In this document: positions 1-57,774 of the stretch, piece by piece | Position numbering within the stretch: position 1 is the first letter of the stretch | Layout: each line of letters begins with the position of its first letter | From: an uncultured delta proteobacterium | GTDB lineage: Bacteria; Myxococcota; UBA727; VGSZ01 | Reading direction: 5' to 3' | NCBI GenBank assembly: GCA_963775425.1 | Contig: CAVZJB010000009.1 | Coordinates: 336,616-394,389, forward strand | Length of the DNA: 57,774 nt | Notes under the pieces: generated by a model | What the model was told of the DNA's origin: nothing | Databases searched by the model: none | Seen by the model: only the letters and a program-made list of their open reading frames with translations | Position numbers and translations under genes: made by a program

Positions 1-1085
1 GACGCGCCGGAGGCGCTGGCGGCGACGAGCGATGGGTCCGCGGCCACCGAGGCGTCGACGGCGATGGACGACGCGGCGCCCTCCACCGCGGCCGGCGGCG
101 TGAACAGGTCGTGGCCGCTGGTGCCGTCGAGCGCGACGCCTGCGCTGTGGACGGCGTTCATCTGGTTTGCGAAGTCGAACGCGGCCTGGTCGACGTTCTT
201 CTCGGCCGCGGCGAGCCCGCCGTCGCGCGCCTGCAACAGGCCGCCGATGGTCCCGCCGACCTGCGCGTTGTCGAGCACCTTGGCGGGCGCACCGTCGACG
301 CCGGTGGCGGTGAGCGCGAGGTGGCCGCGGTTTCCGGCGACGGCCCGGGTGCCGAAGGTCGCGGACTTGTCTCCCGCCACGAGGACCACGCTGCCGGTCT
401 GCACGTTCAGGTCGCCGTCCTGCTCGATGAGCTTTCCGCCGGTGAGCGCGGAGAGATCCTCGGCCGCCTTGCGGCGCGCGTCGAGGAGGTCGTTGGGCTC
501 GCCGCCGCCGGCGCGGGCCTTGCGCACCTCGGCGTTGAGGCGCGCGACGTTCTTGGCGAGGTCGGTCGCTTGCGCGGCCTCGCCTCCGAGCTGCCCGTCG
601 ACGGCGCGCCGGGCGCCGTCGAGCTCGGACGCCGACCGTTGAAACGTCTGCGCCACCTGTCCCGCGGCCGTGACGAACGCGCGCCGCGCGCCCGGATCGG
701 AGGGCTGCCGCGACAACTCGCGCACCGCGGAGAAGAAGTTGGCCAAGGTGGTCGGCAGGTTGAGCGGGTCGTCCGGGTCGAGCGACCTGACGGAGGTGAG
801 GGTCGAGGCCTGCGCGTCCGCGAACGCCGCGGCGCCGAGCGCGCCCGGCACCTGTGCCTCGAGGAAGCGGTCGCGCGCCTGGCTCACGGTGAGCACGTTC
901 ACGCCTTGGCCGATGAAGGCGCCGCCGAGCATGGCGGCCGGCAGCGCGGCGGTGAGCTCGGCGCGCTGGCGGGCGTAGCCGGGCGTCGACGCGTTGTCGA
1001 TGTTGTGGCTGGCGGTGGCGACGCCGACGCTCTGCGCGGAGAGGGAGCGCGCTGCGATGCTGAGTTGGGACAGCAGGTCGGTCAC
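1..1085 (-). CDS. flgK: flagellar hook-associated protein 1 FlgK, N-terminal ~360 codons (3' end beyond the left window edge)
   Basis: Absent from the ORF track because there is no in-window stop. Reverse-strand translation from GTG at ~1085 gives VTDLLSQLSIAARSLSAQSVGVATASHNIDNASTPGYARQRAEL, the conserved N-terminal segment of the flagellin/hook-associated family, and later GTSGHDLFTPP typical of FlgK. A GGAGGG sits 4-5 nt upstream, overlapping the flgN stop. Lies directly downstream of flgM-flgN. GC3 is high in this frame. Confidence 0.85.
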   Translation of the reverse strand, partial: MTDLLSQLSIAARSLSAQSVGVATASHNIDNASTPGYARQRAELTAALPAAMLGGAFIGQGVNVLTVSQARDRFLEAQVPGALGAAAFADAQASTLTSVRSLDPDDPLNLPTTLANFFSAVRELSRQPSDPGARRAFVTAAGQVAQTFQRSASELDGARRAVDGQLGGEAAQATDLAKNVARLNAEVRKARAGGGEPNDLLDARRKAAEDLSALTGGKLIEQDGDLNVQTGSVVLVAGDKSATFGTRAVAGNRGHLALTATGVDGAPAKVLDNAQVGGTIGGLLQARDGGLAAAEKNVDQAAFDFANQMNAVHSAGVALDGTSGHDLFTPPAAVEGAASSIAVDASVAADPSLVAASASGA

Positions 1086-1094
1086 GTCACCCTC

Positions 1095-1550
1095 CTAGGC
1101 TTGGGTCCTCGTCGAGGACGGGAGAGACGCGGCTCTCGCCTCGCCACCGCGTCCGTATGCTTGAGGGGCAGGGAAGAGCGCCGCGAGGTAGGCGCGCACG
1201 ACGGCGCGCGCGCGGGCGACCATCGCGTGACGGCGCGCGTCGCTGGCGGTGAGATCGCGGACGAGAGCGCGGACGCGTCCGATCTTGCTCCGGATGGCGT
1301 CGACGGCGTCGGGGCTCGTCGCAGAGAGGGCGTCGAGCGTGGGCTCGCGACCCGAGCGGCGCGCCTCCTCTTCGACGGCGGACAGGACGCTGCGCTCGAG
1401 CGCGGCCAGTCGCGCGCGGACCTCGCCGCGCTCCACGGCCCACCGGGCGAGCGCCGCGACGTCCGGCTTGTGCCGTTCTTGATCGATGGAGGCCTCGAGC
1501 GTGCGCACGATCTCGTCGAGGTCCTGCAGCGCGCGCTCGAGGGTGGTCAT
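1095..1550 (-). CDS. flgN: flagellar export chaperone FlgN-like protein
   Basis: Internal ATG of the 264-aa minus ORF (MTTLERALQDLDEIVRTLEASIDQERHKPD). 151 aa, helical. Start overlaps the flgM stop (ATGA). Position between flgM and flgK matches the canonical flgMN-flgKL arrangement. The upstream part of the ORF-track reading is Arg/Pro-rich wrong-frame text. Confidence 0.6.
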   Translation of the reverse strand: MTTLERALQDLDEIVRTLEASIDQERHKPDVAALARWAVERGEVRARLAALERSVLSAVEEEARRSGREPTLDALSATSPDAVDAIRSKIGRVRALVRDLTASDARRHAMVARARAVVRAYLAALFPAPQAYGRGGEARAASLPSSTRTQA

Positions 1551-1858
1551 GGGGTCACCGCGGCGCCCGGGTGTTCGTCGAGGGACGCCTCCACGCCCTC
1601 GAGGAGATCGGACGTCTCGAGCATGCGGGCCGCGATGCGGCCGGGGTCGGGTCGATAGGTGCCGTTGCGCACAGCGAGGGCCAGGACCCTCATGCGCTCC
1701 GCGCGCGCCTGCTTCTCTTTGACCAGGGAGGTGGTGACGGCGCGCTCCGTCCGGTCGAACGAGACGCGGTCGCCCGGGGGCTTCGCGGCTTCGCGCGGAT
1801 CGGCTGTGCGCGTCACGGGTCGTGCTTCGAGAGCGGGGAGGGGGCTGTTGATCTTCAC
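1547..1858 (-). CDS. flgM: anti-sigma-28 factor FlgM
   Basis: 103 aa, MKINSP... with C-terminal VRNGTYRPDPGRIAARMLE resembling the FlgM C-terminal sigma-28-binding motif. Overlaps flgJ stop and flgN start by 4 nt. Confidence 0.8.
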   Translation of the reverse strand: MKINSPLPALEARPVTRTADPREAAKPPGDRVSFDRTERAVTTSLVKEKQARAERMRVLALAVRNGTYRPDPGRIAARMLETSDLLEGVEASLDEHPGAAVTP

Positions 1859-2598
1859 GGCTTCGAGTCCTCACCCGAGTCTTCGACACGGGCGGGGCGG
1901 ACCTTTAGGGTGGATGTGGGATCCGGCGGCCGGCGCCACCGCGCGGCGTGCGCGTTGGGATCCACGGGAGTCCCGTGGATCCGAGCCTCGACATGGACGT
2001 GCGGTCCCGTGGATCTGCCCGTGGAGCCCACATCTGCCACCACCTGGCCGGCCTCCACGCGCTGGCCCCGCGCGACGAGCAGCTTCTCGGCGTGCGCGTA
2101 GCGGGTGACGACGCCGTCGTCGCCCTCCACCTCGACGGCGAGCCCGTAGCCGCCCTCGCGCCCGGCGGCCCGGACCACGCCCCCCGCGAGCGCGTGGATC
2201 GGGGTGCCGGCGGGCGCCGCGATGTCGATGCCCTCGTGAAACGCGGCGTGTCCGTCGATGGGGTCGCGCCGCGGGCCGAAGGGGCTCGTGACGTGGCCGC
2301 GCCCGGCGAGCAGCGCCTCCTCGAGTCCCGCCGCGCCCGCGGCCGCCGCCGGCAGGCCGCCCGCGCCGCGGTGAGGCGCGGGCGGGGCCTCGTGCGCCCC
2401 GCCGCCGAGCGAGCGCTCGACGGCGCCGGCGAGCCCGAGGCCGCCGGCCTTGGCCACGGCGTTGGCGATGACGTCGACGAACATGTCGCCGTAGACGTGG
2501 GCGCCGCTGTCCTTGCTCCCGAAGACCTTGGCCTCGCGCAGCAGTTGCCGCAAGAGCACCGCCTCGAGCTGCTGGGCTGCGTCGTGCACCGTCTTCAT
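1855..2598 (-). CDS. flgJ: FlgJ-like protein: N-terminal rod-binding domain fused to an M23 peptidase domain
   Basis: 247 aa. N-terminus AAQQLEAVLLRQLLREA matches the FlgJ rod-binding domain. C-terminus SPFGPRRDPIDGHAAFHEGIDIAAPAGTPIHA ... GYGLAVEVEGDDGVVTRYAHAEKLLVARGQRVEAGQVVADVGSTGRSTGPHVHVEAR is an M23/LytM peptidase fold with the HxxxD and HxH metal-ligand arrangement. Sits between flgI and flgM. Confidence 0.85.
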   Translation of the reverse strand: MKTVHDAAQQLEAVLLRQLLREAKVFGSKDSGAHVYGDMFVDVIANAVAKAGGLGLAGAVERSLGGGAHEAPPAPHRGAGGLPAAAAGAAGLEEALLAGRGHVTSPFGPRRDPIDGHAAFHEGIDIAAPAGTPIHALAGGVVRAAGREGGYGLAVEVEGDDGVVTRYAHAEKLLVARGQRVEAGQVVADVGSTGRSTGPHVHVEARIHGTPVDPNAHAARWRRPPDPTSTLKVRPARVEDSGEDSKP

Positions 2599-3696
2599 TC
2601 ACATCACCACAATCTCGGCGTCGACGGCGCCGGCGGCCTGCATGGCCTGCAGGATGGCGATGACGTCGCGCGGCGTGGCCCCGAGGACGTTGAGCGCCGC
2701 CACGAGCTCGTCGACGGTGGACGCGGCGGGCACGGCCTTGGCGGCGCCCGAGCCCTCTGTGACGTCGAGCTGCGCGCGGTTCGTCACCGCCGTGCGCCCG
2801 CCCGAAAACGGGCCCGGCTGCGACACCAGCGTGTCGCCCGCCACCGCCACCTGGAGGTCGCCGTGCGCGACGACCACCGGTCGGATACGCACGCCCTCGC
2901 CGGCCACGATGGTCCCGGTGCGCTCGCTGATGACGATGCGCGCGCGGCCCACGGCGTCGACCTCGAGGTCTTCGATCTTCGCCAGCACGTCCATGGCCTC
3001 GTCGCTGCCGCGGTCGATCTCGACGGCGGCGGGGTCGGTGGCGCGCGCGCGCGTTCCGCCGAGGGCGGAGTTGACGGCGTCGGCGATCTTCTTGGCGGTC
3101 TGGATGTCCGGCCGGCGCAGCGCGAGCACGAGCGGGCCGGCGTCGAGGTCGGGGCGCACCGCGGCCTCGACGACGCCGCCCGAGGGCACGCGGCCCGACG
3201 CGGTGTCGTTTCGTTGCACACGCGAGCCCGCGGCTTCGACGAGGACGCCGCCGGTCTGTACCGGGCCCTGCGCGGTGGCGTAGACCTTCCCGTCGGCGCC
3301 CACGAGCGGCGTGACGACGAGCGTTCCGCCCACGAGGGAGCGGGCGTCGCCGAGGGAGCTGACGGTGACGTCGAGGTGGGCGCCCGGCCGCATGAACGTC
3401 GGCAGCGTCGCCGTCACCATCACGGCGGCGACGTTGCGCGATCGGATCTGGCCGGGCTCCACGCGCACGCCGAGGCGCCCGAGCATCCCGCTCATCGACT
3501 GCTGCGTGAACAGGACGCGCGCGCTGTCGCCGGTGCCGGCGAGGCCGACCACGAGGCCGTAGCCGAACAACGCGTTGTCGCGGACGCCGCGCACGTCGAC
3601 GATGTCCTTGACGCGCGACTTGCCGTTGGCGGTCGGTGCGCCCGCCGCCGGCGCGGCGAGGAGAGCGAGGGCGACGGTGAGGAGGGCGGCGCGCAT
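2599..3696 (-). CDS. flgI: flagellar P-ring protein FlgI
   Basis: 365 aa starting MRAALLTVALALLAAPAAGA (signal peptide), from an internal ATG of the 579-aa ORF. Contains FGYGLVVGLAGTGD and the C-terminal ELVAALNVLGATPRDVIAILQAMQAAGAVDAEIVVM, both typical of FlgI. The upstream 214 codons of the ORF-track reading are Arg-rich junk. Confidence 0.95.
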   Translation of the reverse strand: MRAALLTVALALLAAPAAGAPTANGKSRVKDIVDVRGVRDNALFGYGLVVGLAGTGDSARVLFTQQSMSGMLGRLGVRVEPGQIRSRNVAAVMVTATLPTFMRPGAHLDVTVSSLGDARSLVGGTLVVTPLVGADGKVYATAQGPVQTGGVLVEAAGSRVQRNDTASGRVPSGGVVEAAVRPDLDAGPLVLALRRPDIQTAKKIADAVNSALGGTRARATDPAAVEIDRGSDEAMDVLAKIEDLEVDAVGRARIVISERTGTIVAGEGVRIRPVVVAHGDLQVAVAGDTLVSQPGPFSGGRTAVTNRAQLDVTEGSGAAKAVPAASTVDELVAALNVLGATPRDVIAILQAMQAAGAVDAEIVVM

Positions 3697-7442: not shown

Positions 7443-8347
7443 CCAGCAGACTCCCGGAACATGCGATCCCAAAACACCGACAGGCGCCCGCCCGCACCGC
7501 CGTCGGCGCCGTCGAGGACCCGGCGCTCCACCCGCGCGAGGGCGAGGCTCGCGCTGGCGTTCGGCGACAAATCCACCACCGCCCGGCGCGCCATCACCGC
7601 GCGGCGCACGGACTCGTCGCGCGGCACCCCGCCGGCGAAGCGCAGCCGCACGGGAAGGAAGCGCCCCGCGACCGCGGCGAGGCGGCCGAAGGAGTCGCGC
7701 GCGTCGGCGTCGGACATGGCGCAGTTGACGACGACGTCGACGGCGTCCACGCCCACCTGCGACAGCGCCTTCACGGCGGCGTAGGCGTCGATGAGGCAGG
7801 TGGGCTCCGCGTTCACCGTGAGCACACAGGTGCTCGCGGCGGACGCAAAGAACATGACGTTGCCGCCGATGCCCGCGCCGCAGTCGATGAGCACGAGGTC
7901 GAAGTCCTGCTCGACGAGCGCCAGCTCCTCCAGGATGCGTCTGCGGCTGCCGCCGTCCAGGTCGGCCAGCGCGCGCACGCCGCTGCCCGCCGCGAGGATC
8001 TTCACGCCGGACGGCCCATCGGCGATGGCGTCGCGGATGCCCGCGGTGCCCTCGATGACGTCCTCGATGGTGTAGCGGGCGCGTGCCTGCAGGATGACGT
8101 CGACGTTGGCGAGCCCGAGGTCGCCGTCGATGAGCAGCACGCGCACGCCGCGGCGCGCTGCGAGCACGGCGAGGTTGGTGCTCAGGAACGTCTTTCCCAC
8201 GCCGCCCTTTCCGCTCGCGACGGCGACGCAACGCGCCTTCGCCGTCGAGGGGGCCGGGCCGCGCTCGTCGCGCCGGTGCGCGTTCACGAGCACGCGGAGG
8301 CCGCCGGCCTGGTCGTCGTTCGAAGCGGGGTCCAGCTCGGGGGTCAC
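7439..8347 (-). CDS. flhG: flagellar number regulator FlhG (MinD/ParA-family ATPase, FleN/YlxH)
   Basis: 302 aa with deviant Walker A (VAVASGKGGVGKT) and LLIDGDLGLANVD. GTG start overlaps flhF stop (GTGA). Conserved flhF-flhG-fliA synteny. Confidence 0.9.
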   Translation of the reverse strand: MTPELDPASNDDQAGGLRVLVNAHRRDERGPAPSTAKARCVAVASGKGGVGKTFLSTNLAVLAARRGVRVLLIDGDLGLANVDVILQARARYTIEDVIEGTAGIRDAIADGPSGVKILAAGSGVRALADLDGGSRRRILEELALVEQDFDLVLIDCGAGIGGNVMFFASAASTCVLTVNAEPTCLIDAYAAVKALSQVGVDAVDVVVNCAMSDADARDSFGRLAAVAGRFLPVRLRFAGGVPRDESVRRAVMARRAVVDLSPNASASLALARVERRVLDGADGGAGGRLSVFWDRMFRESAG

Positions 8348-9417
8348 AGGAGCTCCTCGGTGAACGCACGCACATCGAAGGCGTGCAGGTCTTCGGGCAC
8401 GCGCTGCCCGTCGGTGAAGCAGGTGACGGCGCGGGCGAGGACGGCGGCGACGTTCACGAGCCCGCCTCGGCCGTCGGCTTCGTCGAGCTTGGTGACGACG
8501 ATGCCGCTCGTCGCCAGCGCCGCGTAGCGTTCGCGCAGCGCCCGGAGCTGCTTCACGCTCGATCCCGCGGCGGCCGCCAGGTGGATCTCGACGTCGGGCG
8601 CGCTCTTCAACACGGTGAGCTGCTGCGCGAACGTCTCGGTCTCGAGCGGCGAGCGGCCCGCCGTGTCGATGAGGACGAGGTCGGCGCGCGCGGTGCGCGC
8701 GAGCACCTCGGCGAGGGCCTTGGCGTCACGCGCGACGTACGTCGCGAGGTTCATGATCTCGCCGTAGCGCCGCAGTTGGTCGACGGCGCCGATGCGCCAG
8801 GTGTCGATCGTGACGAGCGCGACCGACAGCTTGGTGTCGAGGAGCGCGCGCGCGGCCATCTTGGCGATGGTGGTGGTCTTGCCGACGCCGGTGGGGCCGA
8901 CCAGCGCGACCACCCGCCGGCGCGGCGCGGGCGGCGCCGTCCACGGCGCGTCGCCCGCGCAGAGCACCTCGTCGAGCGTCGCGCCGACGCCGTCGGCGAG
9001 CGCCCGCCGCCGCGGGAGGCGCGCGGCGCGCTCGACGAGCCTGCGCGCGATGACCTCGGCGACGCCGGCGTCGACGAGGCGCGCCACCACCGCTTCGGGC
9101 GCGCACGCGGCCCCGGACGGCGGCGCCAACGGGCCGGCGTCGTTGAAGATGCCGCGCGGCTCGCTGCTGTGCGCCGCGGCCGGCGTCGGCGCGTGGAGGG
9201 CCGGGCGAGCGCCGGGCGCGCGGGCGAGGATCTCGATCTCCATCGGCCCGCGGGCGCTGCGCACCTCGCGCGTCGACAGGAGGATGGCGTCGCCGCCGAG
9301 CGCGCGCCTGACGGCGTCGAGGGCCGCGCGGGGCGTGGCGCCGCGGAAGGCGTGTGCGTCGACGGCAGCGTCGGCGGCGGCGCCGGGGCGGGAAGACGGA
9401 GGGGCGAGGTCGAGCAT
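8344..9417 (-). CDS. flhF: flagellar biosynthesis SRP-type GTPase FlhF
   Basis: GVGKTTTIAKMAA (G1), DTAGR (G3), TKLDE (G4), SRP-GTPase-like. Start moved from the ORF-track TTG (9432) to the in-frame ATG at 9417 (MLDLAPP), which has AAGGAG 7 nt upstream. The flhA stop then lies 12 nt before it. Confidence 0.88.
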   Translation of the reverse strand: MLDLAPPSSRPGAAADAAVDAHAFRGATPRAALDAVRRALGGDAILLSTREVRSARGPMEIEILARAPGARPALHAPTPAAAHSSEPRGIFNDAGPLAPPSGAACAPEAVVARLVDAGVAEVIARRLVERAARLPRRRALADGVGATLDEVLCAGDAPWTAPPAPRRRVVALVGPTGVGKTTTIAKMAARALLDTKLSVALVTIDTWRIGAVDQLRRYGEIMNLATYVARDAKALAEVLARTARADLVLIDTAGRSPLETETFAQQLTVLKSAPDVEIHLAAAAGSSVKQLRALRERYAALATSGIVVTKLDEADGRGGLVNVAAVLARAVTCFTDGQRVPEDLHAFDVRAFTEELL

Positions 9418-9428
9418 CCGGGCTCCTT

Positions 9429-11504
9429 TCAAGCGGCCAGCGCCTGCGGCTGCACCTGCAACACGCCGGCCGGCTCGATGGTCGTCGAGGGAAGAAGCTC
9501 ACGCGCGCACACCACCTGCAGGTCGGGGATGAAGCGCGAAGCGAAGTCGAAGAGCGCGCGGCGCAGATTGGGGGGCGCGAGCACCACCACGGGGCCGCCG
9601 GCGGCGAGCATCTTGGTGGCGTGCGCTTCGAGCCGGTCGATGAGCCTGCGCGCGTTGTCCACGTCGAGCGCGAGCACCGGTTCGCCGTCCGACGCGCCCA
9701 CGGCCTGGCGGAGCATGTGCTCGGTGGCGCGGTCGATGGTGATGGCGCGGGCGACGCCGTTTTCGCCGGCGACGTGCGCGGTGATCTGGCGCGCCAGCCG
9801 GCGGCGCGCGTGCTCGACGAGATACACCGGGTCCTTGCTCTTGGGCGCGCTCTCGGCCACGGCCTCGAGCACCGTGCGCAGGTCGCGCACCGAGACGCCC
9901 TCGCGCAGCAAGCCGCGCACGACGGCGACGATGTCGCCGAGCGAAGCGATGGCGGGCACCACGTCCTCCACCAGCTTCGGCGCGTCCTTGGCCACCACGG
10001 CGATGAGCTCCTGCACCTCCTGGCGGCCCACGAGCTCGGCGGCGTTCCTGCGCAACAGCTCGCCGAGGTGCGTGGTCACCGTCGACGGCCCGTCGACGAT
10101 GGTGAGGCCGAGGATCTCCGCATCGGTGCGGCGGTCGGTCGGGATCCACTTCGCCGGCAGCCCGAAGGCCGGCTCGCGCGTGGCGATCCCCTCGATGGCC
10201 GGCTCGGCTCCGCTCGGGTCGAGGACCATCAAGCGATCGGCGTAGGCGGTGCCGCGGCCGATCTCGTGCCCACGCAGCAGCACGCGGTAGGTGTTGCCGT
10301 CGAGCCCGAGCTCGTCGCGCAGGTGCACGGCGGGCAGCAGGATGCCGAGGTCGCCCGCGATGCGTTTGCGCAGCGCCGCCACGCGTCCGGGCAGCTCGCC
10401 GCCGCGGGCGGTGTCGATGAGGGGGACGAGGTCGCCGCCGAGCTCGAGCTCGAGGGCGTCGAGGCTCAGGAGATCGTACGGGCGCTCCTCCTTCGGTTTG
10501 CCGCCCGCCGCGCCCGCGTCGCCCGCCGCGCCGGAGGCGGAGGCGGCGTCGGGCGCGCGGCGCACGAGGCGCGCGACGAGGAGGAGGCCGGACCCGATGG
10601 CGAGCATGACGAGCGTCGGCATGCCGGGGATGAGCGCGAGCACGCCGAGCATCCCGGCCGCGCCGAGGAGGACGGCGGGGTCGCGCGTCATCTGCCCCTT
10701 GAACGCGTCGCCGAGGTCCCCGCTCGTGCCCGCGCGCGTGACGACGAGCCCCGCGGCGGTGGAGACCAGCAGCGCCGGCATCTGCGAGACGAGCCCGTCG
10801 CCGATGGTGAGGATGGTGTACGTCTCCGCCGCCTTCTGGAGGCTGAGGCCGTCGCGCGCGAGGCCCGCGATGAGCCCGCCGGCGATGTTGATGAGGATCA
10901 CCGCCAGGCCGGCGACGGCGTCGCCGCGCACGAACTTGGATGCGCCGTCCATGGCGCCGAAGAACTCCGTCTCCTGTTCGAGCCTGCGCCGGCGGGTGCG
11001 CGCCGTGTTTTCATCGATGAGGCCGGCGGCGAGGTCGGCGTCGATGGACATCTGCTTGCCGGGCAACGCGTCGAGAGTGAAGCGCGCGGCCACTTCGGAG
11101 ATGCGTCCGGAGCCCTTGGTGATGACGGCGAAGTTGACGACCAGGAGGATGACGAACACCACGGAGCCGATGAGGACGCTGCCGCCGACGGCGAAGCGGC
11201 CGAAGGCCTCGACGATGTGGCCGGCGGCGCCGTGGCCCTCGCTGCCGTGAAGGAGGATGAGCCGCGTGGTGGAGATGTTGAGCGCGAGCCGCAAGAGCGT
11301 GATGAGCAGCAGCAGCGAAGGAAACACGCTCAGGTCGAGCGGGTCGCGCAAGCGGAGCGCCACCAGGAGCACCAACACCGACGCCGCGATCGTCGACGCG
11401 AGCAGCGCGTCCACCGCCAAAGCCGGCAGCGGGATGACGAGCGTCGCCAGGATTCCGACGACGGCGACGGCGAGGACGTTCGCGCTGCTGTTCGACGAGG
11501 ACAT
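9429..11504 (-). CDS. flhA: flagellar type III export gate protein FlhA
   Basis: 691 aa from internal ATG (MSSSNSSANVLAVAVVGILATLVIPLP). Transmembrane N-half plus cytoplasmic C-half with FlhA hallmarks (VITKGSGRISEVAARFTLDALPGKQMSIDADL, GAMDGASKFVRGDA). GGAAG lies 6 nt upstream. Confidence 0.95.
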   Translation of the reverse strand: MSSSNSSANVLAVAVVGILATLVIPLPALAVDALLASTIAASVLVLLVALRLRDPLDLSVFPSLLLLITLLRLALNISTTRLILLHGSEGHGAAGHIVEAFGRFAVGGSVLIGSVVFVILLVVNFAVITKGSGRISEVAARFTLDALPGKQMSIDADLAAGLIDENTARTRRRRLEQETEFFGAMDGASKFVRGDAVAGLAVILINIAGGLIAGLARDGLSLQKAAETYTILTIGDGLVSQMPALLVSTAAGLVVTRAGTSGDLGDAFKGQMTRDPAVLLGAAGMLGVLALIPGMPTLVMLAIGSGLLLVARLVRRAPDAASASGAAGDAGAAGGKPKEERPYDLLSLDALELELGGDLVPLIDTARGGELPGRVAALRKRIAGDLGILLPAVHLRDELGLDGNTYRVLLRGHEIGRGTAYADRLMVLDPSGAEPAIEGIATREPAFGLPAKWIPTDRRTDAEILGLTIVDGPSTVTTHLGELLRRNAAELVGRQEVQELIAVVAKDAPKLVEDVVPAIASLGDIVAVVRGLLREGVSVRDLRTVLEAVAESAPKSKDPVYLVEHARRRLARQITAHVAGENGVARAITIDRATEHMLRQAVGASDGEPVLALDVDNARRLIDRLEAHATKMLAAGGPVVVLAPPNLRRALFDFASRFIPDLQVVCARELLPSTTIEPAGVLQVQPQALAA

Positions 11505-47014: not shown

Positions 47015-50347
<3,333 letters not shown>

Positions 50348-50361
50348 CGGGAGCGTCCCTG

Positions 50362-51722
50362 CTAGCGCGTGGGCGCTGCGCCGACGCCGAGGAAGCGCTG
50401 GGCGAAGACGTCGAGCGGCACCAGGAGCACGCCGCCGTCGAGCGCCTTGAGCCCGAGCGCGCTGCGCGGCGCGGCCCAGCCGTTCTGGCCCCAGGGGTTG
50501 CGCACGCGCACCATGCGCGCGCCGCCGGACCGTTCGACGCCGAGGACGGAGTAGGCGTGGTCCTGCGCGAGGCCGCTGTTGGCGAACGGGAGGTCCGGCG
50601 TGTCGAGCCGTGTCCACCCGACCATCACCTCGCCGCGCTGCTGGCGCTTCTCGAGCGCGCTCCCCAGAGCGTCGGCCGGCGTGACGTCGAATCGAAGTGT
50701 CGGCCGGCGGCGCCGAGGACGGCCTCGAAGGCCTCGAAGGGATACCCGGAGCGCACGGCTTCGTAGCCGCCCTTCCACGCGGCATACGCCTTCTCGACGA
50801 CGGCGAACCACAAGTCGCCGCTCGCGCAGGAGCCGTACGCGGGCATGTTGGCGAAGCCCGTGACGTAGAAGCTGTTGTCGACGGTGACGGGCTCGGGGAC
50901 GTAGCGCTCCTGTTCATGGTCGTAGCGCTGGAACGTCACGGTGAACGTGCCGTCCTCGTTGTCCTTGATCATGTCCTTGATGCGTTGCGGGTCCACCGCC
51001 GCGATGGCGTCCATGGTGGACACGAGCCAGCAGTCGCCGATGCGCCCCTGTTTGGCCGTGGCCACGCGCGGGGAGCCGTCGGCGAAGAGCGGGCCGTCGA
51101 GCTTCTTCAGCCGCACGTTCCCCGTCGCCGCCACCGGCGGGGGCTGCGCGCCTGCGGCGAGCGGCGCGCACAAGGCCCCGCACACCTCGGCGAAGCTGTC
51201 GTTGTGGGCGCCGTCGCTGGTGGCGAGGTCGAAGACGTCGCCGGGCGCGCCGGAGACCTGCGCGTCCGCCGGCAGCCGGCCCTCGTCGTCGAGCGTGAGC
51301 ACGGCGGCCTCGCCGCTCCTGCGGTTCTTCACCTGGAGGAGCTGGCCGGGCTCGCCGACGACGGTGCTCTTGCACACGTGCGAGAAGAGGAACGTCCCGG
51401 GCTCGCCGGCGACCAGCCGCAGGCCCTGCTGGCGGACGACGGGCGGCCGGCCGTCGACGCTCTCGACGTTTTGGAGCCGCACCGCGAGCGCGCTCTTGCC
51501 CGCGCGCACCTGAAGGCGATCGCCCTCGCGCGCGGCGGGGAGCGTCACCGAGAACGTGCCGTCGGCGCCCGCCTTTGCGTGCGCGAACACGTCGGGCGTG
51601 TCGGCCGGGGCGAAGGGCGCGAGGCTCTTGTTTTCGACGACGACCTCGCTGTCGGGCGCGACCTTGCCCTGGGCGACGACGACGCTGCCTGTCTTTTTGA
51701 ACCCGAGCTTGTCGATGGTCAT
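50362..51722 (-). pseudogene. calpain-like (peptidase C2) cysteine protease gene interrupted by a 5-bp tandem duplication
   Basis: Frame A from ATG 51722 (MTIDKLGF...) contains the catalytic-Cys context KQGRIGDCWLVSTMDAIAA. Frame B (50811-50362) contains the catalytic His/Asn contexts AQDHAYSVLG and VRVRNPWGQNGW. The two frames meet at CACTTCGATTCGACGTC (minus-strand reading, near 50685-50700), where TTCGA is duplicated. Removing one copy gives continuous ...GRHFDVTPADAL.... Confidence 0.6.
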
Positions 51723-52078
51723 CGCTGCGCTCCCGTGATGAGCGCGCGCTCGATCTCTTCGAGCGCGTACGTGTCCGGACCGTAGCGCCCGAGGACGGCG
51801 TCCTTGTCGTCGATGAGGAACGGCCCGCGGACGCCGGGCGTGAGCGCGTAGCTGCCCGCGGGCTTGGTGGCGACGATCTCCTTGTCGGCGTGGCCGCGCA
51901 GGACGCGCGAGACGGCGACGTGCACGCGCTGCGGCGGCCGGTCGGGGGCGGCGTCGACGGCGGCACCGCGATCGTCCTCGGGCCAGGGAGCGAGGTCTTC
52001 CACCGACCGCACCACGCCCACGACGATGAGCGCGGCTTGGGGCAGGACCTCCTCGATCGGATCGGGGGGCAGGGCCAC
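51719..52078 (-). CDS. hypothetical small protein upstream of the calpain-like gene
   Basis: 119 aa from in-frame GTG (VALPPDPIEEVLPQAALIVVGVVRSVEDL...). High GC3. Stop overlaps the calpain-like ATG (ATGA). The longer ORF-track reading would overlap the divergent ung start. Confidence 0.4.
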   Translation of the reverse strand: MALPPDPIEEVLPQAALIVVGVVRSVEDLAPWPEDDRGAAVDAAPDRPPQRVHVAVSRVLRGHADKEIVATKPAGSYALTPGVRGPFLIDDKDAVLGRYGPDTYALEEIERALITGAQR

Positions 52079-52154
52079 GCCGCACTCTACCTGCGCCGGC
52101 GGCTGCGGCAATGTGACTTCGGCCGCTGTCCGGTGCCCGGGATACAATGGCGGG

Positions 52155-53087
52155 ATGCCGCGCATCGCCCGCACCGAGGACGTCATGGCGCGCGTGCGCG
52201 CCTCGCTCCTGGCCGAGCACGCGCCCAAGAAGGCCACGGCCGCGGCGGAGAAGCTGGTCTCGGAGATCGACACCGTCGGGAAGGGCAGGCTGTCCATGGC
52301 CGAGGTGCGCGCCATCGCCGCCCGGGACGCCGACGTCGGCGTCCACGTCGCGCGCGCGTACGAGCTCATCACGGGCCGGCACGTCGACATCGAGCCGAGG
52401 CTCGGCGCGCTCGCGAGCCGCATCCCTGCAGACTGGCGAAAGGCGCTCGCGGGGGAGATGGACAAGCCCTACTTCAAGGAGCTCGAGCGCTTCGTCGCCC
52501 GGGAGCGAAAGCACGTCCACGTCGAACCGCCGCCCGGCGAGGTGTTCGCGGCGCTCGCGCGCACGCCGCTCAAGAAGGTGCGGGTGGTGTTGCTCGGCCA
52601 GGACCCGTACCCCACCAAGGGCAACGCCTGCGGGATGAGCTTCTCGGTGCCCACGGGAAAGCCCATCCCGGCGTCGTTGAAAAACATGCTCAAGACCGCT
52701 CACGCCGACGTCGGCACCACGGTTCCGAACAACGGCGACCTCGGACCGTGGGCGGACCAGGGCGTCCTGCTCCTCAACACCATCCTCACCGTGCGCGAGG
52801 GCGAGCCCGACTCGCACAAGGACCATGGCTGGGAGCAATTCACCCAGGCCATCCTCGACAAGGTGAACGCGCAGAACAAGCGCGTGGTGTTCCTCCTCCT
52901 CGGGAAGCAGGCGCAGGCGGAGGGCGCCCACGTCGACACCGCCAAGCACGTCGTGGTCACGGCGCCGCACCCCTCGCCCATGGTTCCCGGCAACCCCTTC
53001 GGCAAGACGCACGTCTTCTCCGACGTCAACAACGCGCTCTCCGACGGCGGCCGCGGCACCATCGACTGGCAGCTCCCCGACGCCTGA
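52155..53087 (+). CDS. ung: uracil-DNA glycosylase (family 1 Ung) with a ~90-aa N-terminal extension
   Basis: Internal ATG MPRIARTEDV. Core has W-R-x-A-L...KPYFKEL, the water-activating loop GQDPYPTKGNACGMSFSV (GQDPYH family motif) and the HPSPMVPG leucine-loop region (HPSPLS). Confidence 0.85.
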   Translation: MPRIARTEDVMARVRASLLAEHAPKKATAAAEKLVSEIDTVGKGRLSMAEVRAIAARDADVGVHVARAYELITGRHVDIEPRLGALASRIPADWRKALAGEMDKPYFKELERFVARERKHVHVEPPPGEVFAALARTPLKKVRVVLLGQDPYPTKGNACGMSFSVPTGKPIPASLKNMLKTAHADVGTTVPNNGDLGPWADQGVLLLNTILTVREGEPDSHKDHGWEQFTQAILDKVNAQNKRVVFLLLGKQAQAEGAHVDTAKHVVVTAPHPSPMVPGNPFGKTHVFSDVNNALSDGGRGTIDWQLPDA

Positions 53088-53197
53088 CGGGGATTCGTTC
53101 GCACCGCGGCCGCTCCAACGGTCACGGTCACAATTCCCCTTGTCCCGCGATGTGGGCGTGTTGCAGAGCGACAAAGCTGCATGCGACGTTTGCGTCG

Positions 53198-53677
53198 ATG
53201 ACGCCGCGCGCTCTCGCCCACAGCCTCCTCGCGCAATGCAACGAAGAGATCGCGCGCGGCATCCATCCCCTGATGTGCACCGTGGTGCCGGCCTACACCC
53301 GGGTGGACCGGGACGCCTCGCAGCGCGCGGCCGCGGCCATGCTCCGGAGCCTCGCGGGCTTCCTCAACGACGGCGACCTCGAGCGCATGGTGGGCGCGGC
53401 GCGGAGCCTCGTGGAGGTTCGCCGCCTCGGCGGCCTCGACAGCGCCGACATCGTGGTGCTCACCCACGTGTACCTGGCGGTCATCCGGCGCGCCTTCTTT
53501 GCGCGAGCGTCGTCGGTGCCCGAGGTCTTCGCGGCGTTCGAGGTGCTCGAGGACGTTTCGCTTCCCCTCATGCGTCGACTCGTCCAGATGATCCTGGCGG
53601 ACGACAAGCAACCCGCGCTCGGGGAAGATCTCGAGCACATCACCCTCAATGACGGCGGCTTCCCCGGCGACGAATGA
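53198..53677 (+). CDS. hypothetical protein, possibly RsbR-N-terminal/globin-like sensor fold
   Basis: 159 aa from ATG (MTPRALAHSLLAQCNEEIARG). ATG 53150 is an alternative. GC3-biased. ERMVGAARSLVEVRRLGGLDSADIVVLTHVYLAVIRRAFF loosely recalls the non-haem globin N-domain of RsbR-type proteins. Low confidence on function. Confidence 0.4.
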   Translation: MTPRALAHSLLAQCNEEIARGIHPLMCTVVPAYTRVDRDASQRAAAAMLRSLAGFLNDGDLERMVGAARSLVEVRRLGGLDSADIVVLTHVYLAVIRRAFFARASSVPEVFAAFEVLEDVSLPLMRRLVQMILADDKQPALGEDLEHITLNDGGFPGDE

Positions 53678-54191
53678 GCGTCGGCACGGCGTCCCGGCTC
53701 CTATCGCTCGCGGGCGCGGACCCTCGGGCGGAGCTTCAGCTTTCGGGTTCGCTCGCGCGATGCGCGAGACTGCCTCATCCGTGACGCCGGTGCCGACGAG
53801 GTCGAGGTAATCTCGTGCCGCGTCCGCTCGTTGCAGACGGCGTCGCCGTTGAGCTCATGGACCATGGACCCTTGAAGGCGGGACACATCGACTTCGAGGA
53901 CGGTTGGGACCTCCCGCGATGGATCGAGCGCCTTACAGTAACGAGCTCGTTTTCTTCTGGCCAGGCACGGAGCGTGGGCCCATCAAAACGGGCGTGAACC
54001 ATCGACGGAAGTACTCGAAGGCGGGTTGCGTTACGCTGCGCGTACCGACGGCGGCGGTCGTCGCGGCCAATGCGCCGTCCTCACCGCTGTTCGCGCGCGT
54101 GAACAGCGGCGCTCCCCGATCGTCGGGTGGCCGCCACACCTTGCGCGGATCTGCGACGTTCACACGCGCCCCCGCGTTCCCCATGGGCGAG

Positions 54192-54338
54192 CTACGCGAA
54201 GTCGTTTTCGAGTTGGAGGCGCTCGTCCCTGGCGTCCAGCACTGGCAGTGAGCAGATGTTGCCGTCGTCGTCGGCGTCGCCCTCGACGGAGTCGGGCGAC
54301 GTCGACGCGTTGCCGGAGTCGAAGGCCGAGCCCTCCAC
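54192..54338 (-). CDS. candidate small acidic protein (~48 aa), below the ORF-track length cut-off
   Basis: Reverse-strand reading GTG/TTG-...VEGSAFDSGNASTSPDSVEGDADDDGNICSLPVLDARDERLQLENDFA-TAG. 44 of 48 codons end in G/C, although the surrounding segment is visibly less GC-rich. Divergent from the McrB-like gene. Coordinates approximate to about 2 nt. Confidence 0.3.
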   Translation of the reverse strand: MEGSAFDSGNASTSPDSVEGDADDDGNICSLPVLDARDERLQLENDFA

Positions 54339-54377
54339 TCTCAACCCGCGGTAGGCTGCCGACCGAGGGCTCTACTG

Positions 54378-57377
54378 ATGATCGACGAGACGAAAGCGCG
54401 GGATCTCGCTGCGAAATTGCGAGCGGCCGCAAAGCGGTCTCTTGTCGAGGAGCTCCCGGCGGACGACCTCCGGACGAAGAACTGGCTTCAAGGCGCAGGG
54501 AAACCCGTTGTCGTCGGCACATTCCGCTTCGCCACACCCACTCCCTTCTTCGTCCAAATCTTCGCGAACGCCCGCGGCGGGGCGGGATTCAACGTGGCGA
54601 TCTGCCGGACGATCGGGCAGACCATCATGGACCTGCGCGAGGGCACAACGACTGGTCTCGAATGGACCTATCGGCCAGCAAAGCGGGATGCGCGGAACGG
54701 CGAACGCAAAGTCGCATTCGTGAAACGCGCCGGCAGCGACACCGTGCCCATACCGCTGCCCGACGGCGACGTCGTCGGATTCGCGGAAGCGATCGCCCGA
54801 GCCCTTTCGATCCGGGACGAGGTAGAGCAGAGACTCGGCGGCGATGACGACGACGACGATAACGTGGGCGACGACGCAGAGACGCCGCTCGACGTCTTGC
54901 AACGCTGGTATCCCGACGAGAACGACCTGCGCACCTTGGCTGCCGCGATGGCAGGATCGATCAGGGTGGCCGACGCTGGGAACCGCCGAAGCTGGGTGGT
55001 GAACTACCGGAAGGATCGGGAGGTCGTCCGCCTCAACGTCGGATTCGCGCGCGTCTTCGATATCCGCCGCGGCGATGTCCTCGTCGCCATCAGCACGGAG
55101 AAGCTCCCAGCCACGAGATTGAAAGCGCTGGATGAGCTTGTGGATGAAGAAGGCGGCTCCCTTAGCGAGCAGAAGTACGGGAGGAACGTCGCGCTCCGCC
55201 TTTCGCCGGCGCAGCTCCGCGCGCTCGATGAGGACGTCAAAGCCGCGCACACGGAACTTGTCGTGCGCTGCTCGGCACATGGGACGACCCCGTTCGCTAA
55301 GTTTCACAAGCCGGGTGTCCTCCATGCGCTTCGCGCGCTCAGCGGTGAAGACATCCCCGACCCGACCCTCTCCGTCATCAAGAAGAACTCCTTTTGGAAG
55401 GTCTCACCTGGTGAACACGGCAGTGAGTGGGCCCAATGCCGTGATGGGGGGTATGTCGCCATTGGATGGACTGAACTCGGTGACTTGCAGAACGTCGACG
55501 AGGCTGAGTTCGATCGACGTGCGAGCGCGGCTCGAGCGAAGCACGGGTGGGGGACCGGCGGGCCACTCCAAGTCTGGAAGTTCCGGAACATCAATCTTGG
55601 CGACCGCATCGTCGCCAACGCGGGCACGTCGCGTGTGCTCGGGATCGGAACGGTAGTCGAGCGGTACTACTTCGTGGACGGGACCGAGTTCGGTCACCGC
55701 CTCGGTGTCCGTTGGGACGATGTCACCGAGCGCGTCGTCGACGAATACGGCTGGCGGAGCACGGTGATCCGGCTGACGGAGGAGGCGTTCGACGAGATCA
55801 CGCGGGCGCCGGCTGCCGACGCGGAGGAAGCGGCGCCAGTTCCTGCCGTCGCGCAGCCGAGCGGCGGTATCGACTTCGAGGGGATCATCTCCCGACTAGA
55901 AAGCCGGTCGCTCTCGTTCCCGGCAGAGTTGATCGCGGCGTACCTGCTGGCGCTTCAGGCGCGCCGCTTCGTGTTGCTCACGGGGATCTCCGGTACGGGC
56001 AAGACGCAGCTAGCCCTCGAGGTCGCGCGGCTCTTCGCGCCAGCGGCATCAAGCGCCCGGCACACGCCCGACAACGATCGCGTAGTCATGACCGTAAAGC
56101 CGTACATGTTGAAGTACGGGCGCTTCGTTCTCCCAGTGAAGCTCGCGCAGGACTTCGACGTGCTTTACGACGACAAGAAGCGGCTCGACGTTCGGATGCT
56201 CGGGCGCAGCGCGCCCGAGTCGATGGCGCTCGTCAAGCGCGGCGAGGGCGGCACGCTCCTCTACGTCCTGCTCAGCGGCGAAACGAGACGGGAGTTCATG
56301 CAGAACGTCGTCGAGGGGACTCAACTTGTGGTTCGCCGGGAGGAGAACGAGGGGAAGGAGGTGCTCGTCGTCGAACGAGCAAATGAAGACGTGGCTGCGC
56401 CGACGATCGTGAGTCATCAGCTGGTCGCTGTCCGGCCCGATTGGACCGACGGCCGCGCCCTACTCGGCTTCTACAACCCGCTCACGCGGACGTACGCGTC
56501 GACGCCGACCCTCAACTTGGTCATCCGCGCCGCCGAGGAGGCGCGTCTTGCGGTCGCTGAAGCCCGACCGCCTCGGCCGTTCTTCTTGATCTTCGACGAG
56601 ATGAACCTCGCGCGCGTGGAGCAGTACTTCTCGGATTTCTTGTCGGCGATGGAGTCCGGCGAGCACATCGACCTTCATGACGACGACGAGATTGAAGATG
56701 TGCCCAGCCGGGTCGCTCTTCCGCCCAACCTTTTTGTTGTCGGGACCGTGAACGTCGACGAAACGACGTACATGTTCAGCCCGAAGGTCCTCGACCGCGC
56801 TTTCGTTCTGGAGTTCAACGAGGTGGACCTCGACCTCCTGTCTGGCCGCGGGCCGAAGGAGGAGCCCGACTCGACGCCGCTCGCACTCACGAAGTTGTCC
56901 GGCGGCCTCAAACTGATCGGCAGGCAGACGGACGCCGAGTGGACCGCGTTCGAGCAGCACCGAGGTGGCGAGCTCCGGCGCCTTCTTGACGCCGTTCACC
57001 AGGTTCTCGTCGATGAGAACCGCCACTTCGGCTATCGCGTCGCGCGCGAGATCGCGCGCTTCACGAATCTCGCGTCGGAGCAGACGAACGGAGGTCACGA
57101 TTCTCTGCTCGCGGCGTTCGATGTCGCGCTGCTCGCAAAGGTTCTCCCGAAGCTCGGCGGCACCCAAGCCGACCTCGAACACGTGCTCGATCGCCTGCTG
57201 CTCATCGCATTTGGCGAGGCCCTCAGCGAAACGAAGGCGCTCGACGGATGTCGGCTCGCGCGCGGGAGGCTCTCGGCTGCTGGTGGCGAAGAGCCGCTGC
57301 TACCGAGAACCGCGGCGAAGCTCTGGCGAATGCGGCGGCGACTGGGCGTGCAAGGCTTCGTGAGCTTCATCGAGTAG
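54378..57377 (+). CDS. McrB-family AAA+ GTPase-like protein with a ~500-aa N-terminal region (candidate modification-dependent restriction/defence motor)
   Basis: 999 aa. C-terminal half has Walker A VLLTGISGTGKTQLALEVARLF, the McrB signature PFFLIFDEMNLARVEQYFSDFLSAMES (DEMNRA-type motif) and LFVVGTVNVDETTYMFSPKVLDRAFVLEF. The N-terminal half includes a segment (FWKVSPGEHGSEWAQCRDGGYVAIGWTELGD...GDRIVANAGTSRVLGIGTVV) reminiscent of PUA-like (EVE/ASCH) reader domains. This identification is tentative. Confidence 0.75.
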   Translation: MIDETKARDLAAKLRAAAKRSLVEELPADDLRTKNWLQGAGKPVVVGTFRFATPTPFFVQIFANARGGAGFNVAICRTIGQTIMDLREGTTTGLEWTYRPAKRDARNGERKVAFVKRAGSDTVPIPLPDGDVVGFAEAIARALSIRDEVEQRLGGDDDDDDNVGDDAETPLDVLQRWYPDENDLRTLAAAMAGSIRVADAGNRRSWVVNYRKDREVVRLNVGFARVFDIRRGDVLVAISTEKLPATRLKALDELVDEEGGSLSEQKYGRNVALRLSPAQLRALDEDVKAAHTELVVRCSAHGTTPFAKFHKPGVLHALRALSGEDIPDPTLSVIKKNSFWKVSPGEHGSEWAQCRDGGYVAIGWTELGDLQNVDEAEFDRRASAARAKHGWGTGGPLQVWKFRNINLGDRIVANAGTSRVLGIGTVVERYYFVDGTEFGHRLGVRWDDVTERVVDEYGWRSTVIRLTEEAFDEITRAPAADAEEAAPVPAVAQPSGGIDFEGIISRLESRSLSFPAELIAAYLLALQARRFVLLTGISGTGKTQLALEVARLFAPAASSARHTPDNDRVVMTVKPYMLKYGRFVLPVKLAQDFDVLYDDKKRLDVRMLGRSAPESMALVKRGEGGTLLYVLLSGETRREFMQNVVEGTQLVVRREENEGKEVLVVERANEDVAAPTIVSHQLVAVRPDWTDGRALLGFYNPLTRTYASTPTLNLVIRAAEEARLAVAEARPPRPFFLIFDEMNLARVEQYFSDFLSAMESGEHIDLHDDDEIEDVPSRVALPPNLFVVGTVNVDETTYMFSPKVLDRAFVLEFNEVDLDLLSGRGPKEEPDSTPLALTKLSGGLKLIGRQTDAEWTAFEQHRGGELRRLLDAVHQVLVDENRHFGYRVAREIARFTNLASEQTNGGHDSLLAAFDVALLAKVLPKLGGTQADLEHVLDRLLLIAFGEALSETKALDGCRLARGRLSAAGGEEPLLPRTAAKLWRMRRRLGVQGFVSFIE

Positions 57378-57381
57378 TCGA

Positions 57382-57774
57382 GTGCTTGGGTCGCTCACCT
57401 TCCGAGCGCGCTACGGCATTGAGGTCGCCGAGGATCTCGGGCGCGGTGTGTCGCTCCGTGGCGAAGTGGAGTGGTTCGTCAACGGCGCGCCGCACGAGAT
57501 CGAGCTGCTCATCGCAAGCGTCGGACCGGCCGCGACACGGGTCTCATCGGACGCCGTCCTGCTGCGGTTCGGCAACAGCGTGGGACGATTCGTCCTCGGC
57601 ACGCTCGGAACACTCGTGGTCCGTTGCGGCAAGTGGGGCGACGACGAGTTCGAGGCGATGCTCAACGAGCTCACGGAGGTCGCGCTCGCGCTTCCGTTCG
57701 CGGCGGATCAGACCGCGGGGCTCCCCCACGATCGTTCCTTGGCGCGGCACAACGAGATCCTGCTCCACGCGTTT
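57382..57774 (+). CDS. hypothetical protein, 5' part only (runs off the right window edge); possible partner subunit of the McrB-like protein
   Basis: GTG 5 nt after the McrB-like stop. High-GC3 reading VLGSLTFRARYGIEVAEDLGRGVSLRGEVEWFVNGAPHEIELLIASVGP... continues open to the window end. Not in the ORF track (no stop). Partner role inferred from position only. Confidence 0.4.
   Translation, partial: MLGSLTFRARYGIEVAEDLGRGVSLRGEVEWFVNGAPHEIELLIASVGPAATRVSSDAVLLRFGNSVGRFVLGTLGTLVVRCGKWGDDEFEAMLNELTEVALALPFAADQTAGLPHDRSLARHNEILLHAF

Follow-up and report, generated by a model that had tools for sequence, protein, structure and literature searches.

The window analyzed here, a 57,774-nucleotide stretch of contig CAVZJB010000009.1 from an uncultured delta proteobacterium of the Myxococcota, closes with two genes that likely form a McrBC-type restriction module of the NxD branch, comprising an McrB-like AAA+ NTPase motor and an McrC-like partner. 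Among modification-dependent restriction systems, the McrBC enzymes are the classic example, and they serve as tools for mapping DNA methylation. The pair comprises (i) a 999-aa open reading frame (ORF) at 54378..57377, ending in the stop codon TAG (57375-57377), and (ii) after an intergenic gap of 4 nt, a second ORF that begins with a GTG codon at 57382 and is cut by the window end, leaving a 5′ part of 131 codons (57382..57774); both genes, and all their features described below, lie on the forward (+) strand. This two-ORF arrangement, with the second frame running off the window, had been recorded in the first-pass annotation, made from the letters alone, and was recovered as described. The 999-aa ORF is a real gene, since an identical protein entry is on record in NCBI/ENA and more than 20 homologues (43-65% identity) can be aligned with it over the full length.

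The class to which the pair belongs is already catalogued, including (i) a branch in a published census (Bell et al., eLife 2024, PMC11090510), (ii) a probable Pfam domain of unknown function (DUF) for one N-terminal module, and (iii) a PADLOC candidate for the motor. New relative to the literature searched are the position and the probable B3-like nature of a domain inserted in the motor core, two of the N-terminal modules (A and B), and an McrB that unites several modules of reader type.

The AAA+ core of the motor

The anatomy of the 999-aa protein was derived from the family alignment and two AlphaFold2 (AF2) models, covering aa 1-497 (mean predicted local distance difference test score, pLDDT, 87.1) and aa 497-999 (mean pLDDT 80.3). 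The protein comprises module A (aa 1-154), an acidic linker (aa 155-169), module B (aa 170-337), module C (aa 338-480), a further linker (aa 481-497), and an AAA+ domain (aa 498-999) broken by an insert at ~aa 560-680. The first part of the AAA+ domain (55869..56054) contains the Walker A motif GISGTGKT (aa 536-543, nt 55983-56006). The second part (56418..56867) contains the VAVRPDW strand, the Walker B motif FLIFDEMN (aa 736-743, nt 56583-56606), which satisfies the pattern hhhhDE plus N (DExN) and from whose first residue, aa 736, the segment FLIFDEMNLARVEQYF is present, and the signature loop. The latter is contained in GTVNVDETTY (aa 789-798), with the N-V-D-E signature at aa 792-795 (N792, D794, E795; nt 56751-56762), followed by LDRAF (aa 805-809). 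After a low-confidence stretch of the AF2 model (aa 825-850), the C-terminus is helical from ~aa 853 and conserved in the family, the AF2 model and this conservation together defining a lid-like region at 56868..57374.

The motor displays an McrB-like fold and McrB-like motifs. Its AAA+ fold is closest to solved McrB structures, and hhalign aligns it to E. coli McrB (93.5%, E 2.3e-7) over only 83 columns. GISGTGKT, DEMNLA, and GTVNVDETT are invariant among the 80+ relatives collected from one-genome-per-species contigs, and all 80+ related loci conform to GTVN[VI]DE[ST]T. The signature of the NxD branch is NxD, usually followed by E or D (PMC11090510), and N-V-D-E agrees with this definition. 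The first-pass annotation had assigned the C-terminal half to an McrB-type AAA+ GTPase; all the motifs that it quoted are present, but the signature is NxD and not the canonical NxxD, and a core insert of ~120 aa had been overlooked.

The McrC-like partner and its conserved pairing

Judged by sequence comparison, the partner is orthologous to McrC-like nucleases. Its visible 131 residues align from residue 1 with the orthologues and share 49% identity (E 9e-36) with the N-terminus of the partner from one related locus (L001), a 543-aa protein matching Pfam DUF2357 (E 1e-26) and PDDEXK_7 (E 1e-13); DUF2357 combined with PD-(D/E)xK is the McrC architecture (PMC11090510). The orthologues retain LRPD(V/I)VV ... 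DAK(L/F)K ... KMH(A/T)YRDAL, corresponding to an intact PD...DxK motif. The earlier suggestion that the downstream ORF encodes the nuclease or specificity subunit is supported by its similarity to DUF2357 plus PD-(D/E)xK proteins, and the further expectation that the N-terminal region of the motor would include a DNA-binding domain agrees with the reader-type fold of module C described below.

The gene pair is widely distributed. A partner-type gene lies directly downstream of the motor in 5/5 homologue contexts retrieved by exact-protein look-up, and a search with a hidden Markov model (HMM) built on the partner places it right behind the motor in virtually every one of the 80 genome loci with enough sequence, spanning many phyla. 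The closest relatives derive from metagenome-assembled genomes (MAGs) of Myxococcota, with the L007 homologue reaching 65% identity; taken with a GC content of 72-75%, this would point to a host of myxobacterial type. The relatives occur in several kinds of defence context: (i) in a Polyangiaceae MAG (L003), the pair is embedded in a BREX locus that also contains PglZ, PglY, and a PglX-like methyltransferase; (ii) in the P0011 locus and in L004/L005 (P0006), it comes directly after two genes of the same orientation, separated by short gaps, for an MmeI-like restriction-methyltransferase and for a DUF4379-helicase-methyltransferase; and (iii) in other relatives, it is found near GmrSD, OLD-like ATPases, ApeA, or AbiEii. 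The second arrangement may represent a larger four-gene system, which is not found upstream of the pair in the window. Two relatives, L001 and L006, show no adjacent methyltransferase.

Two loci display unusual arrangements. In a Hydrothermarchaeales archaeon (L064, 7989-12692), an insert-bearing NxD motor occurs with its partner while module C apparently resides in a separate upstream ORF, which suggests cross-domain transfer and either a split gene or a frameshift. Locus L031 comprises two McrB-like/partner pairs, at 1-3276 and 7560-11185, the upstream pair being more divergent (partner E 6e-17).

Several results weigh against the McrBC-type assignment. On the motor side, (i) the canonical NxxD signature is absent, the loop reading N-x-D-E; (ii) Foldseek cannot tell McrB apart from dynein or NorQ; (iii) the best McrB match among Protein Data Bank (PDB) sequences in a phmmer search is that of T. 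gammatolerans, weak and confined to aa 734-810 (E 0.004), and the family profile likewise gives a marginal McrB match in the same sequences (E about 0.03); (iv) the score for Pfam AAA_5, 14.9 bits, falls short of the cut-off of 22, Pfam and NCBIfam returning only sub-threshold P-loop matches for the whole protein and its halves; and (v) the census lists no characterized NxD McrB (PMC11090510). On the partner side, hhalign finds no significant similarity between the partner family and E. coli McrC, so that the assignment as McrC-like is based on the Pfam matches to DUF2357 and PDDEXK_7. The window fragment itself yields a weak Pfam match (E 0.25), no PADLOC model matches either the fragment or the partner orthologues, and the nuclease domain of the window copy is presumed, since that part of the gene would lie past the window edge, beyond nt 57774.

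The equal Foldseek ranking of dynein, NorQ, and McrB could also be accommodated if the pair were left over from a defence island and decaying or inactive, or if the motor were a non-defence AAA+ chaperone of the MoxR/dynein clade with an unrelated neighbour, and the ~690 bp upstream of the motor (53690-54377), devoid of a clean ORF and possibly a gene remnant, as well as a nearby calpain-like gene that looks frameshifted, would fit decay. Such an explanation is highly improbable given that the 999-aa ORF is intact end to end against its homologues with invariant catalytic motifs, that the partner start aligns from residue 1, and that strict pairing with DUF2357/PD-(D/E)xK proteins in ~80 loci is a signature of McrBC and not of MoxR.

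A search of PADLOC, which the first-pass annotation had proposed, was informative for one of the two genes: the candidate model PDC-M26A matches the motor (E 5e-42), and nothing in PADLOC models the partner. The PDC models describe untested candidates, which were picked out in BREX, DISARM, and type I restriction-modification (RM) loci through "guilt by embedding" (bioRxiv 10.1101/2024.01.29.577857). Because the partner matches no PADLOC model, assignment of the pair to PDC-M26 was rejected. Since the pair is not recognized as McrBC by the standard models of Pfam, NCBIfam, and PADLOC, modules of this type are probably under-counted in high-GC Myxococcota-like genomes.

N-terminal modules

AF2 modelling of the N-terminal ~500 residues, also proposed in the first-pass annotation, proved sufficient to delimit modules A, B, and C. 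Module A (54378..54839) is a basic α/β domain with a pI of 9.7, connected by the acidic linker (nt 54840-54884) to module B (54885..55388), an optional α/β module at McrB-like N-termini that is modelled with pLDDT >90. When aa 1-337 were run exhaustively with phmmer against 1.84 billion representatives, only 73 clusters matched, module A being confined to close relatives and module B more widespread. Family members of 816-857 aa lack module B, which is present in other phyla, sometimes as a tandem duplicate; four Palauibacter MAGs (L027, L030, L033, and L060) carry a tandem double module B ahead of an insert-bearing NxD motor. In 10 sampled distant proteins, module B occupies the N-terminal region in every case (10/10), lies ahead of AAA_5-type matches in 9/10, and is accompanied by EVE, MrcB_N, or DUF2461, MrcB_N being the methylcytosine-binding domain of E. 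coli McrB. This N-terminal recurrence with different companions, together with the Palauibacter tandem copies, leads us to regard module B as behaving like an interchangeable, shuffled McrB accessory module.

Module C (55389..55817) shows the PUA-like β-barrel common to EVE, YTH, and ASCH domains. Its EVE-like fold agrees with the first-pass proposal of a PUA-like (EVE/ASCH) segment in the N-terminal region, here located at aa 338-480 and of EVE/YTH type. VcaM4I, THYN1, and T. gammatolerans McrB use this fold to read modified bases, and the top structural neighbours of module C also include the DNA readers VcaM4I, THYN1 with 5-methylcytosine (5mC) DNA, and the McrB N-terminal domains. In the family alignment, module C is the best-conserved of the N-terminal modules, with many invariant aromatic residues (W364, W400, F402, Y430, W446, and W459) that are compatible with a pocket for a flipped modified base, without constituting proof of it. 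Pfam gives no match on aa 1-501 even at E ≤ 10, the EVE model PF01878 included, a result that tells against the reader assignment. At the sequence level, module C represents a separate family, probably PF28530 (DUF8426), because truncated and distant homologues carry this family as a precomputed annotation. Module C also occurs ahead of canonical NxxD McrB cores in distant homologues that carry NTAD (P0025-27), and it matches the single-gene PADLOC candidate PDC-S02 (E 2e-11). The picture of an uncharacterized long sensor region drawn in the first-pass annotation becomes less novel in this light, module C being probably DUF8426, modules B and C recurring in McrB-like proteins, and the clade being included in the 2024 census.

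The insert between Walker A and Walker B

The insert (aa ~560-680, 56055..56417) is located between Walker A and strand β2, and extends the Walker A-Walker B spacing to 200 aa, compared with 73-102 aa in insert-free relatives. Across the 80+ relatives the spacing is bimodal, with 73-102 aa in ~27 loci and 195-252 aa in ~57 loci. An HMM of the insert finds matches in Myxococcota, Gemmatimonadota, Chloroflexota, Acidobacteriota, Planctomycetota, Actinomycetota, and one archaeon.

It is reasonably probable that the insert is a B3-like DNA-binding pseudobarrel. The AF2 model depicts a compact β-rich domain of ~120 aa (pLDDT 80-90) with the element order β-β-α-β-β-β-α-β-β and one additional short helix (model residues 79-84) between strands one and two, an order that we take to agree with the B3 topology of RAV1, the B3 fold being a seven-stranded open barrel with two short helices. 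A profile of 27 diverse inserts aligns full-length and colinearly with plant B3 domains at sub-threshold scores (NGA1, E 0.49; RAV1, E 0.84), and hhalign places the insert on the NGA1 B3 domain with 48% probability (E 1.8e-4, 79 columns). Pfam B3 is the only family matched by more than one insert (3/27, E 0.11-0.18), including that of the window (E 0.18, positions 4-84 of 101). It counts against this assignment that the B3 matches are all sub-threshold. The fold-search lists are filled by AAA+ matches. No paper describing a B3-like domain inserted in an McrB core was found in the literature searched.

RuvBL1/2 were considered as relatives on account of a family-profile match (E about 0.04-0.05, motor aa 521-554) and rejected, since the match covers the P-loop only. 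In RuvBL proteins, too, a DNA-binding domain interrupts the stretch from Walker A to Walker B; the resemblance is treated as an architectural parallel and not as homology.

A B3-like insert also brings in LlaJI (R1/R2), which, like the window pair, comprises an McrB-like motor and an McrC-like nuclease and uses a B3 domain for DNA recognition. [quoted passage not shown] The pair could accordingly be one half of a site-specific RM system in which the insert reads unmodified sequence, a nearby methyltransferase protects the host, and unmethylated DNA is cut, as the MmeI-like or PglX-like methyltransferases and the helicase-methyltransferase beside the pairs of relatives, and the frequent methyltransferase association of the NxD branch (PMC11090510), would allow. 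This alternative is unlikely. No methyltransferase gene is present upstream of the pair in the window, where a uracil-DNA-glycosylase-like gene, a small ORF, and the ~690-bp gap precede it, and L001 and L006 do without an adjacent one; moreover, the best-conserved N-terminal module is the EVE/YTH-like module C, a fold that typically reads modified bases, and the B3 assignment is tentative. The two systems also differ in architecture, LlaJI displaying an N-terminal B3 domain and including methyltransferases in the system, whereas the window motor places its probable B3-like domain in the AAA+ core and possesses an EVE-like reader as well.

Relation to known systems

The non-CoCoNuT part of the NxD branch is the closest catalogued group: as in the window pair, NxD is followed by E and an McrC-like partner lies downstream; the relatives of the pair are likewise found near DNA methyltransferases and BREX; and an insertion inside the GTPase domain, "likely encoding specificity domains", is described as in the window motor (PMC11090510). 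The main text of the census names neither a B3-like insert nor modules A and B (PMC11090510). The branch also shows a two-component association, whereas the window operon has no two-component regulator.

The McrBC systems of E. coli K-12 and T. gammatolerans (6hz4, 6ut5/6ut6) share with the window pair both Walker motifs (A and B) and a two-gene operon with the motor upstream. Both McrB proteins possess an N-terminal modified-base reader, that of T. gammatolerans being YTH-like and of the same superfamily as module C. Compared with them, the window motor (i) displays NxD instead of NxxD, (ii) carries a 120-aa insert between Walker A and Walker B, (iii) comprises ~500 aa of N-terminal modules in place of one 160-180-aa domain, and (iv) is similar in sequence over ~85 residues only, the partner family in turn showing no similarity to E. 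coli McrC detectable by hhalign. The EVE-HNH enzymes, such as VcaM4I, employ an HNH effector, whereas the window pair combines a motor with a separate nuclease partner.

CoCoNuT membership was rejected, the two AF2 models being globular without a long coiled-coil and the related loci containing a single PD-(D/E)xK partner and no HEPN or extra nucleases. The same observations bear on a CoCoNuT-related, RNA-targeting complex, in which methylated RNA (tRNA, rRNA, or tmRNA) would be recognized by the YTH-like domain, leading the complex to attack RNA or trigger abortive infection. This possibility is very unlikely: besides the absence of coiled-coil, of HEPN or other RNase genes, and of tandem nucleases, the partner orthologues keep an intact PD...DxK motif of DNase type, the top neighbours of module C also include DNA readers, and the insert resembles B3 domains, which bind double-stranded DNA.

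Proposed mechanism and implications

By analogy with the McrBC complexes of E. coli and T. gammatolerans, the 999-aa motor would assemble as an NTP-bound asymmetric AAA+ hexamer, into whose ring the finger domain of the partner would enter, with a basic residue set against the N-x-D signature loop stimulating NTP hydrolysis. Hydrolysis would power DNA translocation until cleavage, the cut being made by the PD-(D/E)xK site of the partner. The reader modules would select the target: module C may recognize a modified base after flipping it out, the probable B3-like inserts, six per ring, may grip double-stranded DNA, possibly with a sequence preference, and modules A and B may add further contacts. 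That the motor forms a hexamer, which of GTP and ATP it uses, that its partner stimulates it, that the target is DNA, that base modification is required, and that the pair serves in defence are all inferred for the pair from these characterized systems. Within the McrBC-type reading, the balance tips slightly towards modified DNA as the trigger. It is a more speculative and rather doubtful proposal that the pair represents a multi-reader McrB, in which an EVE/YTH-like reader, two other N-terminal modules, and six B3-like barrels decorate the hexamer.

Were the motor to operate with multiple readers, it might require a modified base in a given sequence context, or couple its grip on DNA to the nucleotide cycle, a way of choosing targets that is not on record for any McrBC, and it would open the NxD branch to biochemical description for the first time. 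The branch is large and spans many phyla, and the window pair, with its intact motor, its clear EVE-like reader, and a domain of DNA-binding type set into the ATPase core, is a reasonable candidate for addressing (i) the role of the shortened signature loop in partner-stimulated hydrolysis, (ii) which base modification a DUF8426-type reader recognizes, and (iii) whether ring-inserted domains share in target choice.

Composition, origin, and neighbouring genes

Both genes of the pair are compositionally foreign to their surroundings, with a GC content of 64-67% and a third-codon-position GC fraction (GC3) of 0.80-0.84, compared with 71-72% and 0.94-0.95 in the neighbouring genes. The fall in GC and GC3 coincides exactly with the ~690 bp at 53690-54377, which comprise short overlapping frames on both strands without a clean ORF and are probably the boundary of an acquired segment or a decayed gene. 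No tRNA gene marking an integration site occurs in the window, and the upstream genes of the window are not syntenic with any related locus. Taken together, the lower GC and GC3, the preceding gap, and the tRNA and synteny results indicate that the pair was acquired horizontally.

Upstream of the gap, a small ORF ending at 53677 follows a uracil-DNA-glycosylase-like ORF (51864-53087, +) with GQDPYP ... HPSP motifs, both identified by reading the sequence. Further upstream, at 47015-50347 (+), a 1110-aa protein read by eye displays the order REC - histidine kinase - REC - REC - GGDEF-like, the GGDEF motif being A-G-D-D-F and possibly degenerate. This gene was rejected as the two-component partner reported for the NxD branch, being 4 kb from the pair with unrelated genes between and having a native GC3 of 0.95. 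On the minus strand, a reading of a calpain-like cysteine peptidase (QGRIGDCWLVSTMDAIAAV) at 50362-51740 is divided between two overlapping ORFs, the tail of 50625..53174(-) and 50362..50811(-), and is therefore interpreted as frameshifted, through either a pseudogene or an assembly error.

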